NCBI GenBank assembly: GCA_002952755.1
Contig: CP025011.1
Span: forward strand, 330,001 to 362,000
DNA from: Candidatus Saccharimonadota bacterium
GTDB taxonomy: Bacteria; Patescibacteriota; Saccharimonadia; Saccharimonadales; UBA4665
Direction: 5' to 3'
DNA: 32,000 bases
Position numbers and translations under genes: made by a program. This document shows, piece by piece, positions 3,861-24,995 of the stretch (positions are counted from its first letter, which is position 1; every line of letters starts with the position of its first letter). Below the pieces are notes generated by a model. The model saw only the letters and a list, made by a program, of their open reading frames with translations, was not told the DNA's origin and made no database searches.

Positions 3861-4838
3861 ATGCCTGAAATGTTAAGCGCACCACTTACTCCAGGCCAGT
3901 ATGGCGCAGCATTACTATGGCGCGAGATGGTGGCTGGCGGTCTACGAGAAGTCCGTGGTGACGTTGCGCCATTAGTACCCGAGTTACTCCGTCCAGAGGT
4001 TGAAGGCTACCAGCAGGCTGGCCGCTTGGCTGAAATTGGTGCACCTTACGCGGAAATGAGCAACCCCAGTCTGACCCGAGAAGAGCGGCGTGCCGCTCGC
4101 TCCAGAAGCGCCCATACGATGTTGTATGTTGGTGCGGTTGCCAACCAGTATGCACGCACAGGCTCTGAAGATTTTTTGCATGACGCACACCGTGCGTTGG
4201 TGAATGGAGAGATGCCGTCGCTGCGAGATGATGATTACGGAATGGCTACGTTAGAGTACGCAGCCACGGTGCGAGGCCAGCTCGGCCTGGAACACAACGC
4301 TGGCGTAGGCGATGCGATTGACGAGATATTCCAAGATTTAAACCGCCAACTACTGGCGCAGTACGAGGAAAGTCAAGCTAGCAGGCGCGACCCGCGGCGT
4401 TTAATGGAGATTGCCATGGGCGCTGGTGCTGCAACTGCCGAAATGGCCGCCGTGGCAGCCGCACAGCCTACCGATGTTCCGGCGTTTACTAGGTTTAGAC
4501 AAGCGGCACGGGCTTTTGGTGCTATTGGTTTCTTGGAGGACCAGGCAACCGGCCGTTTGGTTATGGGTAACTTAGAGACGTACGCTTCGGCAGTTTTGCG
4601 CGAGGAGCCACTCACTTTGCAGGGGGTTCACCACGCCATGAGGCGAATCCACGCTATGCGCCGTCCAGCCGAAGCCCAGAAGGTTCACGAGGGTATGAGC
4701 GTGCTTGAACCTGGCCGCGAACGCAACATGTACGGTTCTCAACTGTGGTTCGCACAGCGCGTGCACCAGCTGCAGCGCCTCTCGGGCTTGCCTGGCCGTC
4801 GCCAGCGTGTAGCCCAGGCCCTTGCGCCATCGCAATAA
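3861..4838 (+). CDS. hypothetical protein (Ala/Arg-rich, GC-rich orphan)
   Basis: 325-codon ORF. Sampled lines are 58-67% GC. No motif was recognised. TTGACA at 3824-3829 lies upstream. Confidence 0.6.
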   Translation: MPEMLSAPLTPGQYGAALLWREMVAGGLREVRGDVAPLVPELLRPEVEGYQQAGRLAEIGAPYAEMSNPSLTREERRAARSRSAHTMLYVGAVANQYARTGSEDFLHDAHRALVNGEMPSLRDDDYGMATLEYAATVRGQLGLEHNAGVGDAIDEIFQDLNRQLLAQYEESQASRRDPRRLMEIAMGAGAATAEMAAVAAAQPTDVPAFTRFRQAARAFGAIGFLEDQATGRLVMGNLETYASAVLREEPLTLQGVHHAMRRIHAMRRPAEAQKVHEGMSVLEPGRERNMYGSQLWFAQRVHQLQRLSGLPGRRQRVAQALAPSQ

Positions 4839-18785: not shown

Positions 18786-19280
18786 TTATGAGTGGTGGTA
18801 GTGGTGGGTGAGTGCGTGGCCTTTGCCGCGTTTGAGCAGGTAGGCATTGACGGGGTAGCCGGCTGCAAAGGCAGCTGTCAAGGAAATAACGCGGCTCAGC
18901 CAATAGACTGGGTGGACGAGATTTTTGTCCATGGCACCGGGAATGACTAGTATGGTGAGGTTGTCGGCAATGGTCATGGCTAGAATCGATGTAGTGTCGG
19001 CAGCGAAAACTAATCGCAAGGCCTTTCTAAATGATAGTTTTGCTTTAACGAGCGGCCAGGTAGAAACTGAATATCCAGATAGAAAGGATAAAATTGAAGC
19101 AAGGGTAATCGTTTGCCTTGCATGTAAGCCAGTATGGGTGCCGATGGTAACGCCTATAATTTCACCAATGGCGCAACCTGCTAAGCAGTGGAGTGTCGCA
19201 CTCAAAGCCATGTTTCCAGCCGCGCCATGCGATGTGTGCGTATTTGTGGACATAGGCATCTTGGCGTTCTGGTTTTGCAC
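18786..19280 (-). CDS. DUF4396-family membrane protein with His-rich C-terminus
   Basis: Motif TLHCLAGCAIGEIIG. The C-terminus is HALTHHYHHS. The GTG start overlaps the upstream stop (TAGTG). Confidence 0.7.
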   Translation of the reverse strand: MQNQNAKMPMSTNTHTSHGAAGNMALSATLHCLAGCAIGEIIGVTIGTHTGLHARQTITLASILSFLSGYSVSTWPLVKAKLSFRKALRLVFAADTTSILAMTIADNLTILVIPGAMDKNLVHPVYWLSRVISLTAAFAAGYPVNAYLLKRGKGHALTHHYHHS

Positions 19281-19564
19281 TAGGCGCCCCTTACAATATG
19301 CAGTTCGTAGAGTCTTAGTAGTTCGCCGATCGCTTTTTCGTGTTGCTTTTCATCGTCGCTGTTTAGCATATCCGTTACATGTGTCCGCATATGGTTCTCT
19401 AGGATAAGCTTATTGAGAGAAGCTAGGGATTTTTGGATGGCCAGACTTTGCGTAAGAATGTCAATGCAGTACGATTCATTGTCTATCGCTTTTTGCAGCG
19501 CCTTGCATTGTCCTTCAATAATCTTGGAGCGGTGAGTAGCTCGCTTTTTAATTGCCTGTAGCAT
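19280..19564 (-). CDS. CsoR/RcnR/FrmR-family metal-sensing transcriptional repressor
   Basis: 94 aa. Motif YCIDILTQSLAIQKSL...ENHMRTH (Cys, His, His ligand positions). Confidence 0.85.
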   Translation of the reverse strand: MLQAIKKRATHRSKIIEGQCKALQKAIDNESYCIDILTQSLAIQKSLASLNKLILENHMRTHVTDMLNSDDEKQHEKAIGELLRLYELHIVRGA

Positions 19565-20448: not shown

Positions 20449-20477
20449 TTGACTAGTTCGTATTTCGTCGATATAGT
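20449..20477 (+). promoter_or_regulatory. near-consensus sigma70 promoter of the small-ORF/ATP-grasp operon
   Basis: TTGACT (20449-20454), 17-nt spacer, TATAGT (20472-20477). Confidence 0.55.
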
Positions 20478-20504
20478 TAAAGTCTATTTTAAGGCGAGGT
20501 GCGT

Positions 20505-20762
20505 ATGTCAGAGTTTGACAAGATTGATAGCGTTAAAGACGTAGATGGTGAGTTTGATGAGATTGTAGGACGGCCTGATGTACACCCGCTTGGCGTAGAC
20601 GCATTTGCTGATGAAATGCCAGTGGGTTTTGAGTTTATGTCATCGGTTGACCCCACTAAACGGGAGGGATATAACGATGTACAGCTTGGAAATTTGGCGT
20701 GCCTTTCAGCTGCCGGCACTAATAAGGTTGACGATAATACCAACAGGTTTCTTCTTCCTTGA
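20505..20762 (+). CDS. acidic 85-aa peptide, candidate graspetide precursor
   Basis: GAGGTG SD. The ORF ends 43 nt upstream of the ATP-grasp gene. It is rich in D/E, and the C-terminal part carries T/S/K donors and D/E acceptors. Confidence 0.5.
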   Translation: MSEFDKIDSVKDVDGEFDEIVGRPDVHPLGVDAFADEMPVGFEFMSSVDPTKREGYNDVQLGNLACLSAAGTNKVDDNTNRFLLP

Positions 20763-20805
20763 TTTAGCAGCAGTGATTCTATAGCTGAAGGTCGAATACC
20801 GTAGC

Positions 20806-21783
20806 ATGTCGCGAGCCAAAAAGAAACGTCAGATCGTAGTCATCACCACCGAAGGCGATGCGCATATCCCTTTCGTGCAGAAGCACTTGGAAGAGCCGAT
20901 GATTGTATTGGATTCCAACAGTCTTGTGCACCGCAAAACACTGACCTATGAAATGATTAATGGCAGGATCCGTACTGTTTTTAATGGTCTCCCTTTGGAT
21001 AATGTGCATGGAGTGTGGTTTCGAAAGCCTACCCCAATCGCATTAGACAAGATACCTCTAAATAAAGATTATCGGGCCTATGCCCAGGATTCGCTCGAAG
21101 CACACTATCGATCGCTCTACACCGCTTTTCCTGACGCTCTTTGGATGTCTGATTATTACGCCTTGATAAAGGCGTGCGACAAAACATGGCAGCTTGCAAT
21201 CGCGCAAGAAGTCGGCTTTCATGTTCCAGCTACTATTGTTACCTCCGACACCCAAAGAGCGAAAGCTTTCATAAGCGAGCATGACAAAGTAGTCATGAAG
21301 ACCTCGACGCACTTTGCCCTTACAGTAGACGGTATTCACAAACTACTTTACACAACACTCATAAGTAACAAGAAGCTTCCTAATCTGGAAAATCTCTATG
21401 TATCTCCGATGATTTTTCAGCAAGCTATAGATCCACTCTATGATGTTCGTGCGACGGTTATTGGTGATAAGGTTTTTGCAGCTTCGATCCGAAACGCCGG
21501 CCTTAAGCCACACACCGAAGTACGCGATTGGCGTGTTGGCCACTTTGAGGGCGAGATATACACTGAGCCTATCGAGAATTTTCCACAAGATATTGCAGAT
21601 ATGTGTATTGCCCACACCAGGAAGTTGGGGTTGGCTTTTGGCGCCGTAGATTTAGTCGCAGATAAGAAAGGGAAATTTTGGTTCCTGGAGAATAACCCTA
21701 ACGGCCAATGGGGGTTCATCGAAAGACTCACGGGTCTGCCAATTGGCAAAGCTGTTGCCGAGACATTATATTGCGGCAAGTAG
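20806..21783 (+). CDS. ATP-grasp ligase of the MvdD/MdnC (ribosomal peptide maturase) type
   Basis: Blocks match my recollection of MdnC: IVVITTEGD, VHGVWFRKP, SPMIFQQAI, VRATVIGDKVFAASI, VRDWR, FGAVDLVADKKGKFWFLENNPNGQWGF. Confidence 0.8.
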   Translation: MSRAKKKRQIVVITTEGDAHIPFVQKHLEEPMIVLDSNSLVHRKTLTYEMINGRIRTVFNGLPLDNVHGVWFRKPTPIALDKIPLNKDYRAYAQDSLEAHYRSLYTAFPDALWMSDYYALIKACDKTWQLAIAQEVGFHVPATIVTSDTQRAKAFISEHDKVVMKTSTHFALTVDGIHKLLYTTLISNKKLPNLENLYVSPMIFQQAIDPLYDVRATVIGDKVFAASIRNAGLKPHTEVRDWRVGHFEGEIYTEPIENFPQDIADMCIAHTRKLGLAFGAVDLVADKKGKFWFLENNPNGQWGFIERLTGLPIGKAVAETLYCGK

Positions 21784-22494: not shown

Positions 22495-23079
22495 TTAAGA
22501 CCAGCCTTGTTCTTCAAGTCGGGTTGTCAAAAGTTGTGCTGTACGCTTACTCCACAGTGGTCCATATACGCCGGAATCTAGAAACGCCCTTTCTTCTGGA
22601 GGGATATACTTCCACATCAGGAGATGGCCAATGCCGATTCTCGAGGAGCGCAACACCATGTGCGTGGCAGGCCTCACTGTTCGACAAGGAATTTCACCTA
22701 GCTTTCCTTCGACTGGCTCGAAACACGCCTGGTCGAGAGTGTGGGACACGTTTTCGAAGTCGATATAGGACCATCCATCTTTACCTTTGGCTATGGTCCG
22801 TAGTCGGTTGAATGCGGTGCCGTCTACCAGGTGAGGTAACTTTGGTAAGCTACGGGTAAAACCATATTCGCCGATAACGTCAACGTCGCGAAGCGTTCCG
22901 TCTTTCTTGACCAGTAGCTCTTCGCCGCGCGTCTTGAATTCTAGCAGCGGATCAAGGTCCATCTCTCCAAAAATTGCCGAGCGGCCAATAGAGCCGATTA
23001 CCAGACCACCGGCATTATGAACCGCTTCCAGTGTCTCCCGTAGTCCGTCGTAAGACCTATCCGGTCCAGAGTAACTCAT
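22495..23079 (-). CDS. hypothetical protein, possible nucleotidyltransferase fold
   Basis: GGLVIGSIGRSAIFGEMDLD and RDVDVIG resemble pol-beta-type G[SG]...DxD motifs. The assignment is weak. Confidence 0.45.
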   Translation of the reverse strand: MSYSGPDRSYDGLRETLEAVHNAGGLVIGSIGRSAIFGEMDLDPLLEFKTRGEELLVKKDGTLRDVDVIGEYGFTRSLPKLPHLVDGTAFNRLRTIAKGKDGWSYIDFENVSHTLDQACFEPVEGKLGEIPCRTVRPATHMVLRSSRIGIGHLLMWKYIPPEERAFLDSGVYGPLWSKRTAQLLTTRLEEQGWS

Positions 23080-23094
23080 AACTTATATATTATG

Positions 23095-23847
23095 CTATAT
23101 TCTTGATTCTGCGGAAAGAGGGGGGTAACTACCGATTTGCATCTCTGGGGGATCGACGACCTTTGCCTCGTACCTATTCCTTGACTCTAAAAATGTATCT
23201 ATGCCGGCTGCTAACGCTTCGTATAGTTGGGCGGAAGGAGCTATGAGTCCAGACTCCGTTGCTTCAGCATAATACGTATCAAGCTCGTTAGGGGCAACGG
23301 TCATGAATATCCACCGCTTGCCGCTTAGGTCGTCCCTATCTCTACCGATACATACGGCACCAAGTGCCAGGAGGCCATCTCTGGACCTACTATTTGTTTC
23401 GGCTACAGATGAGCGGACAGCCTTCGCGCCTCTCGCATATGCCTGCAGACGTATTTCGGCACGAATCGCATGCCCGACTCCACCTTGGAATCCTTCGCGC
23501 ACAATAGTCCATGAATTCAGATGGTGCGGGGGCAGCTCTGAAGGTAAGGGCTCTTCGCGTTGGCGTACGTGCGTACCGCCCACATGTGTTACTACTAAAC
23601 CTGCTTCGTTCTTCTGATAGGCCATGGCCCCGTGGCTAATATCCACTGATAAGCGGCCCATCTTCTCAGCTAGTGCGCCCCACCCCTCTTCGTTGATCTC
23701 CTTGATAAAGGCTGGCTTTAGGTCGCGGCTTTCTGCAGGGGTGAGGCGTGGTGCATCTGTCAGTATTTGCGTGTTTGGATCGAGGCCGCCTATATAAAAC
23801 GTACCGATACGGGTACCATTAATCTCGACGGTTGGGATAAATGCCAT
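23095..23847 (-). CDS. GNAT-like acetyltransferase (putative)
   Basis: EGFQGGVGHAIRAEIRLQAYARGAKAVRSSVAETNSRSRDGLLALGA resembles GNAT motif A and the following strands. The ORF is open to GTG 23892. I prefer ATG 23847 because TATAAT (complement of 23881-23886) lies inside the extension. Confidence 0.5.
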   Translation of the reverse strand: MAFIPTVEINGTRIGTFYIGGLDPNTQILTDAPRLTPAESRDLKPAFIKEINEEGWGALAEKMGRLSVDISHGAMAYQKNEAGLVVTHVGGTHVRQREEPLPSELPPHHLNSWTIVREGFQGGVGHAIRAEIRLQAYARGAKAVRSSVAETNSRSRDGLLALGAVCIGRDRDDLSGKRWIFMTVAPNELDTYYAEATESGLIAPSAQLYEALAAGIDTFLESRNRYEAKVVDPPEMQIGSYPPLSAESRI

Positions 23848-23951
23848 ATGTACGATCAACCCCCTAAGCCATGGTTCGCTATTATACAGCACACTCCTTG
23901 TCGTAATCGGTGAGAATCCGTCCAGGCGCCTATTTTTGTTATACTAGGAGT

Positions 23952-24995
23952 ATGTCTAGCGTACCATCCCCAGGCGAAGGTCCTATGGGTATCGATTCCC
24001 ATGACCTGCTGATGGTGCATGGTTCTACCTATCAACTATTAGACCCAACGACCGCGCCTTCGGAGTTGCTTGACCAAGTCCGTGTGGATACGGCAAATCG
24101 ATGTCTGGCCGTTGATACGGCGCTGGGGACGATTGCGGTCGAAGTATATCGGGACGTCAACCCCTCCGGAGGGGGCGAACTGGTACAGGCTGATTTTTTT
24201 CCTCCGCTCGATTCTATAGCTGACCGTGGGCCCGAAGATAACCTACCGGCAGCGTATATCTACCCCTTCACTATTCTGCCGGATGGTGCTCTGTATGACA
24301 TCACGGTCCGTGCGCCCCGCGAAGCAGTGGAGGCTGAATGGGCGGAATCGAGTACCCTGATAATGGGCAACAGATTGGCGGAATTTCGTCGGGCGTATCC
24401 CGACGTTGCGGCCGCCATTCCTGAAGGTGTAATTGCCATAACTGCCGGTGTGCGCACTAAGCCGATGCTTGCAGTCGCTGCACGGATAGAAAATGGCGAG
24501 CCGCTAACGAGAGCGCTGCAAGTTACCGGCGCCGGGGTACGCTATAGAGAGAAGCTCGCGAGCGGTTTTGAGCCTTCCGGACGCCATCCTGATACAGCGG
24601 TCTCAGTCATAAATAGCCGCATAACCAGATCTGAAGATAAGAGCGAGGCTGACTATCAAAGATTAGTGTTTGAGGCTCACGATGGTTCTCAAAAGACCGC
24701 AGGAGAAGCAGGGGGGAGTAGAGGCCTGGTTGAAGTTATCGTTATGCAGGTCGATGAAGTCGAGTACAGCGGTTTTACTTATCCAATGCCCAAGTCTGGA
24801 TTGCTTGGCCCGGATGACCGTTCCGAATCCGCCACCCGGCAGGCCTCCGGCGACGAAGCACATCCTCAGGCGCGGCAAAGGATAGAGGCGTCTGCAAGAG
24901 GTATCCGAAATCTGCGCGCTATTGCTGCCTTTCGTTTTGCCTTGGCTGGCGTTCGGAACGAGCTGACGGCTGGGAATGAACCAGATGTCCCTTAG
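23952..24995 (+). CDS. hypothetical protein (GC-rich orphan)
   Basis: TGTTATACT lies 6 nt upstream of ATG 23952. The product is 347 aa. No motif was recognised. Confidence 0.6.
   Translation: MSSVPSPGEGPMGIDSHDLLMVHGSTYQLLDPTTAPSELLDQVRVDTANRCLAVDTALGTIAVEVYRDVNPSGGGELVQADFFPPLDSIADRGPEDNLPAAYIYPFTILPDGALYDITVRAPREAVEAEWAESSTLIMGNRLAEFRRAYPDVAAAIPEGVIAITAGVRTKPMLAVAARIENGEPLTRALQVTGAGVRYREKLASGFEPSGRHPDTAVSVINSRITRSEDKSEADYQRLVFEAHDGSQKTAGEAGGSRGLVEVIVMQVDEVEYSGFTYPMPKSGLLGPDDRSESATRQASGDEAHPQARQRIEASARGIRNLRAIAAFRFALAGVRNELTAGNEPDVP

Follow-up and report, generated by a model that had tools for sequence, protein, structure and literature searches.

We describe here a pair of adjacent genes in a Saccharibacteria-like member of the Candidate Phyla Radiation (CPR), one encoding a small acidic peptide and the other an ATP-grasp ligase, that are candidates for the precursor and the macrocyclase of a graspetide. 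The pair lies in a stretch of 32,000 nucleotides from a Candidatus Saccharimonadota bacterium (contig CP025011.1, positions 330,001 to 362,000), the whole of which is referred to as the window; coordinates are counted from its first letter. A sequence-only reading of this DNA had proposed the pair as a minimal graspetide-like locus. Its features are as follows, where A2 denotes the window peptide aligned with 13 relatives.

20449..20477, + strand: promoter-like site TTGACT-17-TATAGT, found by scanning, with 10 of 12 consensus positions matched; predicted only.
20496..20501, + strand: Shine-Dalgarno-like sequence GAGGTG, read directly from the DNA, 3 nt before the ATG at 20505 and with its GAGG core (20496-20499) 5 nt away.
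20505..20762, + strand: precursor peptide gene, 85 codons plus stop, beginning at ATG 20505 (open reading frame (ORF) list, hidden Markov model (HMM) and composition).
20550..20606, + strand: N-terminal conserved leader element E16-F34 (FDEIV..GRPDVHPLGVDAF), from A2; the nearest relatives have FEQIA..GLEDV..GDALIA.
20619..20639, + strand: putative leader recognition motif P39-V-G-F-E-F-M45 (consensus P-[FVYA]-G-x-[ED]-h-h), from A2 and the motif count at related loci.
20685..20735, + strand: predicted core L61-GNLAC66-LSAAG-T72-NKV-D76-D77, from residue conservation, with T72 and C66 as candidate donors and D76 and D77 as candidate acceptors.
20736..20759, + strand: short C-terminal tail NTNRFLLP, from alignment with the hydrophobic tails of relatives.
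20806..21783, + strand: ATP-grasp graspetide macrocyclase gene, 325 residues (NCBIfam, phmmer against PDB, AlphaFold2 and Foldseek).

Both ORFs lie exactly where the sequence-only reading had put them, with 43 nt between the stop codon of the smaller one and the ATG of the ligase gene, and the ligase blocks that it quoted are all in the translation and align with blocks of AMdnB and MdnB. Its description of the upstream peptide as very acidic is borne out by the composition: 12 Asp and 6 Glu against 4 Lys and 3 Arg (18 acidic residues against 7 basic ones), with a pI of 4.1 and a single Cys.

The ligase gives its best NCBIfam match to TIGR04187 (GRASP_SAV_5884), which covers its full length (residues 10-321; E = 1.8e-61, 208 bits), and this is followed by MvdC (E = 8.9e-52, 176 bits), MvdD (E = 1.1e-41, 143 bits) and grasp-with-spasm (E = 2e-16, 60 bits). 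A phmmer search of all PDB sequences recovered graspetide ligases only, namely AMdnB, MdnB, CdnC, PruB (9BOU, full length), MdnC and PsnB, the weakest of these being PsnB at E = 2e-5. We built an AlphaFold2 model of the ligase with 21 homologues (mean pLDDT, the predicted local distance difference test, 91) and compared it with the PDB by Foldseek: the top 32 structures were all graspetide macrocyclases, with query-normalised TM scores of ~0.63-0.84 (most of them 0.73-0.84) and PruB at rank 2. Profiles, PDB search and fold therefore agree on a graspetide-type ATP-grasp maturase, as the sequence-only reading had supposed.

The other reading of the enzyme is that it belongs to the RimK/GshB/LysX type and acts on a small molecule or on a protein C-terminus (the addition of poly-glutamate is one example), in which case the small ORF would be unrelated or non-coding. 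Several of its homologues have been named 'glutathione synthase/RimK-type ligase' by the Joint Genome Institute (JGI), and the only Pfam match of the ligase is a marginal one to RimK (E = 2e-4; 21.5 bits, with the cut-off at 21). However, the NCBIfam rimK_fam model scores only 49 bits (E = 4e-13; curated cut-off 143) where the peptide-maturase model reaches 208 bits, the PDB sequence search gave no structure of RimK, GshB or Ddl at E < 0.01, and RimK structures enter the Foldseek ranking from rank 33 with TM scores of 0.59-0.64, below every graspetide ligase. The ligase is, moreover, conserved together with the ORF upstream of it and the leader motif that this ORF encodes. Because profile, PDB sequence search and predicted fold all favour graspetide ligases, the enzyme is placed outside the RimK/GshB/Ddl clades; it most likely belongs with the graspetide macrocyclases (SAV_5884/PruB, MdnB/C, CdnC, PsnB), and we regard a RimK-type function as very improbable.

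The conservation of the upstream ORF was assessed at approximately 50 related ligase loci from GTDB genomes and metagenome contigs. A strict regular expression for the leader motif matched the ORF just upstream of the ligase at 34 of 49 related loci and only 39 of the 6395 other ORFs of those loci, an enrichment of more than 100-fold. Given these counts, the pairing of motif and ligase is far beyond chance, and most of the loci outside the 34 carry looser variants of the motif. Examples from related loci are PFGVEFL, PFGAELL, PYGVELL, PVGAEYL and PAGLELL, and the peptides of Dojkabacteria carry the variant MFAVKYF. In most loci the motif-bearing ORF is on the same strand as the ligase gene and ends 0-120 nt upstream of it (178 nt in L003); none was recognised at L041. 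Flanking genes vary from locus to locus, so the conserved unit consists of precursor and ligase only, in keeping with the minimal locus first proposed.

It might be argued that the small ORF arose by chance or has been called on the wrong strand, and that any true precursor is encoded at another place. An ORF of 84 codons overlaps it on the opposite strand (20489-20743), and at one Saccharibacteria locus (L009:4929-5201) the motif-bearing small ORF (...KPFGADLMIDIEYDQTEATASGAGVTYTYTKTLVDDEGGSGDD) is downstream and not upstream of the ligase, showing that the position is not fixed. The 85-residue peptide also has no homologue by direct search: a word-indexed search returned the peptide itself only, and phmmer against 1.84 billion representatives returned the peptide together with two repeat proteins of ~1100 residues. 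On the other side, an HMM made with 12 peptides from other loci, the window peptide being excluded, matched the + strand ORF and no other, at E = 1.7e-8 among 602 six-frame ORFs (next best 1.1). The ORF has a good Shine-Dalgarno sequence, it was also called by the gene caller on independent contigs, and the motif enrichment described above applies to it. We consider a chance or wrong-strand ORF extremely improbable. The upstream ORF is thus conserved beside orthologous ligases, both by the strict motif count and by the HMM, and a profile search with the family alignment found further precursor members in a collection of 5.8 billion proteins.

The two repeat proteins, P0081 (1116 residues) and P0082 (1099 residues), were set aside as precursor homologues and judged to be spurious matches due to compositional or multi-repeat similarity. 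Their repeats (for example IPDPTKRDIYNSKRIG) resemble the stretch SVDPTKREGYND of the window peptide; in P0081 a unit of ~27 residues (...DKTYVHDDVNSIPDPTKRDIYNSKRIG...) with this resemblance is present in ~15 tandem copies.

The peptide is arranged as an acidic N-terminal leader with the element FDEIV..G..DV..G[DE].., followed by PVGFEFM, a spacer, the core and the tail. Residues P39, G41 and D76 are invariant in A2, E43, G62, A65, C66 and D77 are conserved in at least 90% of its sequences, and nearly all of them have Ser or Thr at position 72. PVGFEFM fits the Phhx(1,2)h leader signature described in PMC8939145, and on this sequence comparison it is the predicted leader recognition motif, the counterpart of the microviridin PFFARFL. 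The sequence-only reading had found its ARFL-like motif at the C-terminus, in NRFLLP, rather than in a leader. This assignment is to be abandoned, since the leader motif is present at P39-M45 and NRFLLP aligns with a hydrophobic C-terminal tail. A second candidate, PLGVDAF (P28-F34), was rejected as a duplicate of the leader motif, being placed by A2 within the separate N-terminal conserved element. The same reading had assigned leader binding to the N-domain of the ligase, a view at variance with published text in which the microviridin leader binds the middle subdomain. Its idea of a donor/acceptor core in the C-terminal third survives in part: Ser/Thr donors and Asp acceptors are conserved there, not diffusely but in the segment L61-D77; the core type of the window clade is L-G-x-x-A-C-x5-[ST]-x3-D-D. 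It was right in finding no fit of this core to the microviridin motif or to the plesiocin motif, both of which are absent from the peptide.

Many relatives have a longer C-terminal extension with a hydrophobic end of the form ...S-L-x (SLF, SLA, SLN, SLL or LLA), and FLLP of the window peptide aligns with this tail as a shorter version of it. A tail motif [DE]-x-[ILV]-x-S-[LI]-x (EINSIF, EVGSLF, DIASLN, DILSLA) is present in peptides of L001, L004, L085, L087, L090, L092 and L094, and the conserved hydrophobic tail stands 20-45 residues past the DD acceptors. It could be a recognition element of the follower type, an export signal or a processing signal.

The nearest homologues of the ligase are 44-51% identical to it and, where they are named, come from metagenome-assembled genomes of Saccharimonadales, Candidatus Saccharibacteria or Patescibacteria; it is from these relatives that the genome is taken to be Saccharibacteria-like. 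More remote relatives occur in WWE3, Dojkabacteria and Microgenomates, and then come SAV_5884-type ligases of Streptomyces at ~29%; a metagenome scan with the ligase alone gave one distant locus among the matches listed. We drew a neighbour-joining tree of the ligases, without bootstrap support or an outgroup and without the other branches of PMC8939145. In this tree the window clade (L001, L084, L002, L089, L090, L092, L094, L093, L083, L088, L007, L012, L004, L085, L005 and L087) is made up of the loci whose peptides have the form G-x-x-[AT]-[CS] ... [ST] ... DD, with only L007 and L012 departing from the exact form. Neighbouring ligase clades carry other cores, namely TTYV...DDDED, THTHTG...DSETDSD, TNTGTGTSQPDADHD and STSTVG.ESGQTDFD. 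By this comparison of sequences, the core changes along with the ligase and the leader motif is constant, which is the general graspetide pattern described in PMC8939145. The window clade, WWE3 (L030, L031) and Dojkabacteria/WS6 (L033-L039) together form one CPR-dominated clade that is sister to the Streptomyces ligases.

Two loci of the window clade have features of their own. On the JGI metagenome contig Ga0136846_1220526 (L094:1-2388), four paralogous precursor genes in tandem (72, 81, 74 and 77 codons) lie between two ligase genes. All four peptides have a P[PV][AV]GLE[LY]M leader and an LG[GD]LAC ... [ST] ... DD core, beyond which they differ in their C-terminal extensions; the locus is the window cassette in a form with several precursors. 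The second is L007:3641-4951, from the cultured actinomycete Actinoallomurus acaciae TBRC 0563 (NZ_JBHLZP010000004.1), whose ligase is 42% identical to that of the window and nests within the Saccharibacteria clade of the tree. The peptide upstream of it carries PFGIDLL, core residues that include Cys and a ...DITGLA tail, and the G+C content of the gene, 0.67, is near that of its flanks (0.70-0.74). This suggests an old transfer, in either direction, between Saccharibacteria and the phylum to which their known hosts belong.

Taken with the ligase placement, the conserved partnership of ORF and ligase makes it very probable that the locus is a two-gene cassette for a graspetide, that is, an omega-ester/amide member of the RiPPs (peptides made by the ribosome and modified after translation), in a Saccharibacteria-like CPR genome. 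Precursor and ligase would be co-transcribed, as the 43-nt gap, the lack of a predicted terminator-like site between the two genes and the promoter-like site upstream suggest. By homology with solved macrocyclases, the ligase would dock on the leader of the precursor through P39-M45, perhaps aided by the second, N-terminal conserved element. ATP-driven phosphorylation of the side-chain carboxylates of D76 and D77 would then allow the conserved nucleophiles to attack the acyl phosphates. T72 would form an omega-ester and a second donor, most simply C66, would close a second ring; S68 or K74 might serve instead, and neither of these is conserved. The simplest topology would be a nested hairpin of T72-D76 and C66-D77. 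The leader would be removed, and the product exported, by proteins encoded away from the cassette. The cross-links and the ring topology are predictions from sequence.

A number of observations weigh against this interpretation. None of the specific maturase models of NCBIfam gives the ligase a score that reaches the curated cut-off (for TIGR04187, 208 bits where 350 are required), and because all of its NCBIfam scores are below those cut-offs it is best described as a divergent relative of the maturases and not as a member of any one equivalog. Single-sequence searches yield no homologue of the 85-residue peptide, the family being recognised by similarity at the level of motif and profile. 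The near-consensus promoter and GAGGTG Shine-Dalgarno sequence of the sequence-only reading are both present, yet the promoter match is statistically undistinctive: the region has 5 promoter-like sites against 3.2 +/- 1.9 expected from shuffles, which is no excess, so that TTGACT-17-TATAGT is a plausible, not a demonstrated, promoter. The donor-acceptor pairs are drawn solely from residue conservation, and a Pfam scan of the neighbouring genes revealed neither a protease nor an exporter near the cassette.

The last of these points bears on a different explanation, in which ligase and peptide are a true enzyme-substrate pair and the modified acidic protein has an intracellular role, in regulation or tagging, instead of giving rise to a secreted ringed product; the Cys and the tail would then serve that role. 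The Pfam scan of the neighbours found no immunity gene either, the precursors are fairly long (60-100 residues) with a conserved C-terminal tail past the core, and CPR bacteria have small genomes with graspetide-like loci whose function is, according to PMC8939145, not known. Nevertheless, hypervariable cores beside a conserved leader motif are typical of RiPP natural-product loci, as are tandem paralogous precursors of the kind found at L094. A dedicated protease is also missing from many characterised graspetide clusters, and the native proteases of the graspimiditides are not known (PMC12291112). An intracellular function is in our judgement improbable.

The core cysteine deserves separate treatment. 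C66 is near-invariant in the window clade and Ser occupies the aligned position in a homologous sub-branch (L083, P0078, P0080), as is seen when LGGIAC-VASAETGSTDADGTETT is set beside IGGAAS-EFSEISLQGSTDADGSETT. One possibility is that C66 is a native nucleophilic donor that forms a thioester (thiolactone) with D77 or D76 beside the T72 ester, which would make this the first natural thioester-containing graspetide family. The conservation of a pair of donors (C66, T72) and a pair of acceptors (D76, D77), the replacement of Cys by Ser in the sub-branch and the failure to see another modifying enzyme near the locus are consistent with this proposal. They are equally compatible with a need for a small residue at the site of processing, with a disulfide formed by C66 or with its modification by an unlinked enzyme, and we rate a native thioester as rather unlikely. 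As of 2025-2026, thioesters in graspetides have been described only as non-native products of engineered substrates. In PMC8939145, doublets of small residues are treated as variants of the GG cleavage motif, and conserved Cys residues in predicted graspetide cores, noted there earlier, are ascribed to possible radical-SAM chemistry; no radical-SAM enzyme was found near the window locus. Were the thioester real, a reactive bond of this kind on the peptide of an episymbiont could act as a covalent warhead, and this is pure speculation.

The genes around the cassette encode a GDSL hydrolase, an HD_3 phosphohydrolase, CsoR, a DUF4396 protein and, in two cases, products with no Pfam match. The statement of the sequence-only reading that no second ligase, GNAT, protease or ABC exporter adjoins the pair is upheld by the Pfam families of the neighbours. 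Another window ORF of 325 codons (3861-4838) was considered as a second ligase and rejected, having no Pfam match, and an Rfam scan of the window found tRNA-Gly only. Just past the HD_3 gene, at 22495-24995, are three consecutive ORFs of 194 (- strand), 265 (- strand) and 361 (+ strand) codons that have no Pfam or NCBIfam match; in independent contigs from this organism (L081, L082), though not in other species, the first two are again neighbours of the cassette. Upstream of the GDSL gene, at 18786-19564, genes for a CsoR-type metal-sensing repressor (94 residues) and a DUF4396 membrane protein (164 residues) form an adjacent same-strand pair, probably a unit that responds to metal and has no relation to the cassette.

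CPR bacteria, Saccharibacteria among them, live attached to other bacteria and have tiny genomes. A dedicated secondary-metabolite cassette that is kept in such a genome probably matters for the attached lifestyle. Our analysis provides a ligase clade, whose relatives had no assigned precursors in a 2022 survey, with a precursor, a leader motif and a conserved core, and the conserved Cys among the donor positions bears on the question of natural thioester formation by graspetide ligases. Should the product prove to be an ester-linked peptide of the ordinary kind, the cassette will be a useful, unsurprising addition to a class with 43 bioinformatic groups; that number is from the 2026 RODEO update, which also lists > 21,000 predicted graspetides.

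When the locus is compared with known systems, RimK, a poly-alpha-glutamate ligase, shares with the window enzyme the ATP-grasp fold and the marginal Pfam match, but its profile and fold scores are far lower, it has no leader-peptide partner and its chemistry is backbone ligation at a protein C-terminus. In the microviridin system (MdnA with MdnB/MdnC or MvdC/MvdD; graspetide group 1) the ligase fold is the same (TM ~0.8), sequence blocks align, and a leader helix motif is followed by a core with Thr/Ser donors and Asp/Glu acceptors. This system differs in having two ligases where the window has one, together with a GNAT and an ABC transporter that the window pair lacks, and in having PFFARFL in place of PVGFEFM; the window core is without TxKxPSDx(E/D)(D/E). 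In contrast to plesiocin-type systems (group 2), no repeated TTxxxxEE is present in the 85-residue sequence. To our knowledge the window core is absent from the motifs of graspetide groups 1-24, and the family bears no resemblance to the printed representative precursors of groups 25-40 (group 31 is not shown among them). On these sequence comparisons, the core motif is unmatched in any described graspetide group with which it was compared.

The CPR loci of Makarova et al. 2022 (PMC8939145) share with the window its superphylum, the minimal style of locus and the Phhx(1,2)h signature that was defined there, and CPR ATP-grasp branches 1 and 2 were predicted in that work to be graspetide clusters. 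The suggestion of the sequence-only reading that the family is possibly unclassified must be narrowed to this extent. The window core does not fit TxxxTx(6-10)Dx(1-4)D of Branch 1, and 'Saccharibacteria' was not found in the main text and the examined parts of the supplements of that paper. The 316-residue ligase of WWE3 RAAC2 in Branch 2 is our L030; it is 36% identical to the window ligase and lies in the same CPR-dominated clade of the tree. No precursor cluster is assigned to this WWE3 sub-branch in PMC8939145. At L030:3756-3896 (WWE3 bacterium RAAC2_WWE3_1, CP006914.1) an ORF of 46 codons, MKSKRKPVKVVPFGAKYLKKVAMANKRSSSNTNTGTGTSQPDADHD, is situated 105 nt upstream of the ligase gene, and L031 has a near-identical peptide; the L030 ORF is likely to be a missed precursor.

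SAV_5884-type systems (TIGR04187), which include PruB of prunipeptin (PDB 9BOU) and ThfB of fuscimiditide, differ from the window pair in several respects. Identity to the window ligase is only ~26-30%, with 208 bits against the 350-bit cut-off, and their lineage is Actinomycetota and not CPR. The window core, L-G-x-x-A-C ... [ST]-x3-D-D with its conserved Cys, is unlike theirs. No PIMT-type O-methyltransferase was detected by Pfam in the genes adjacent to the window pair, so no aspartimide step is expected for its product. There are also likenesses: this family supplies the best full-length profile for the window ligase, with PruB second by fold, a single ligase serves the precursor, and actinobacterial precursors have a similar PFG-type leader (RPFGLDAV, VPFGVRHL). 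Fuscimiditide, with its nested Thr-Asp esters T3-D22 and T7-D18, has the topology that we propose for the window peptide. It is well supported that the window locus encodes a graspetide-type precursor-ligase pair, one of a CPR clade with affinity to the ligases of SAV_5884 type.

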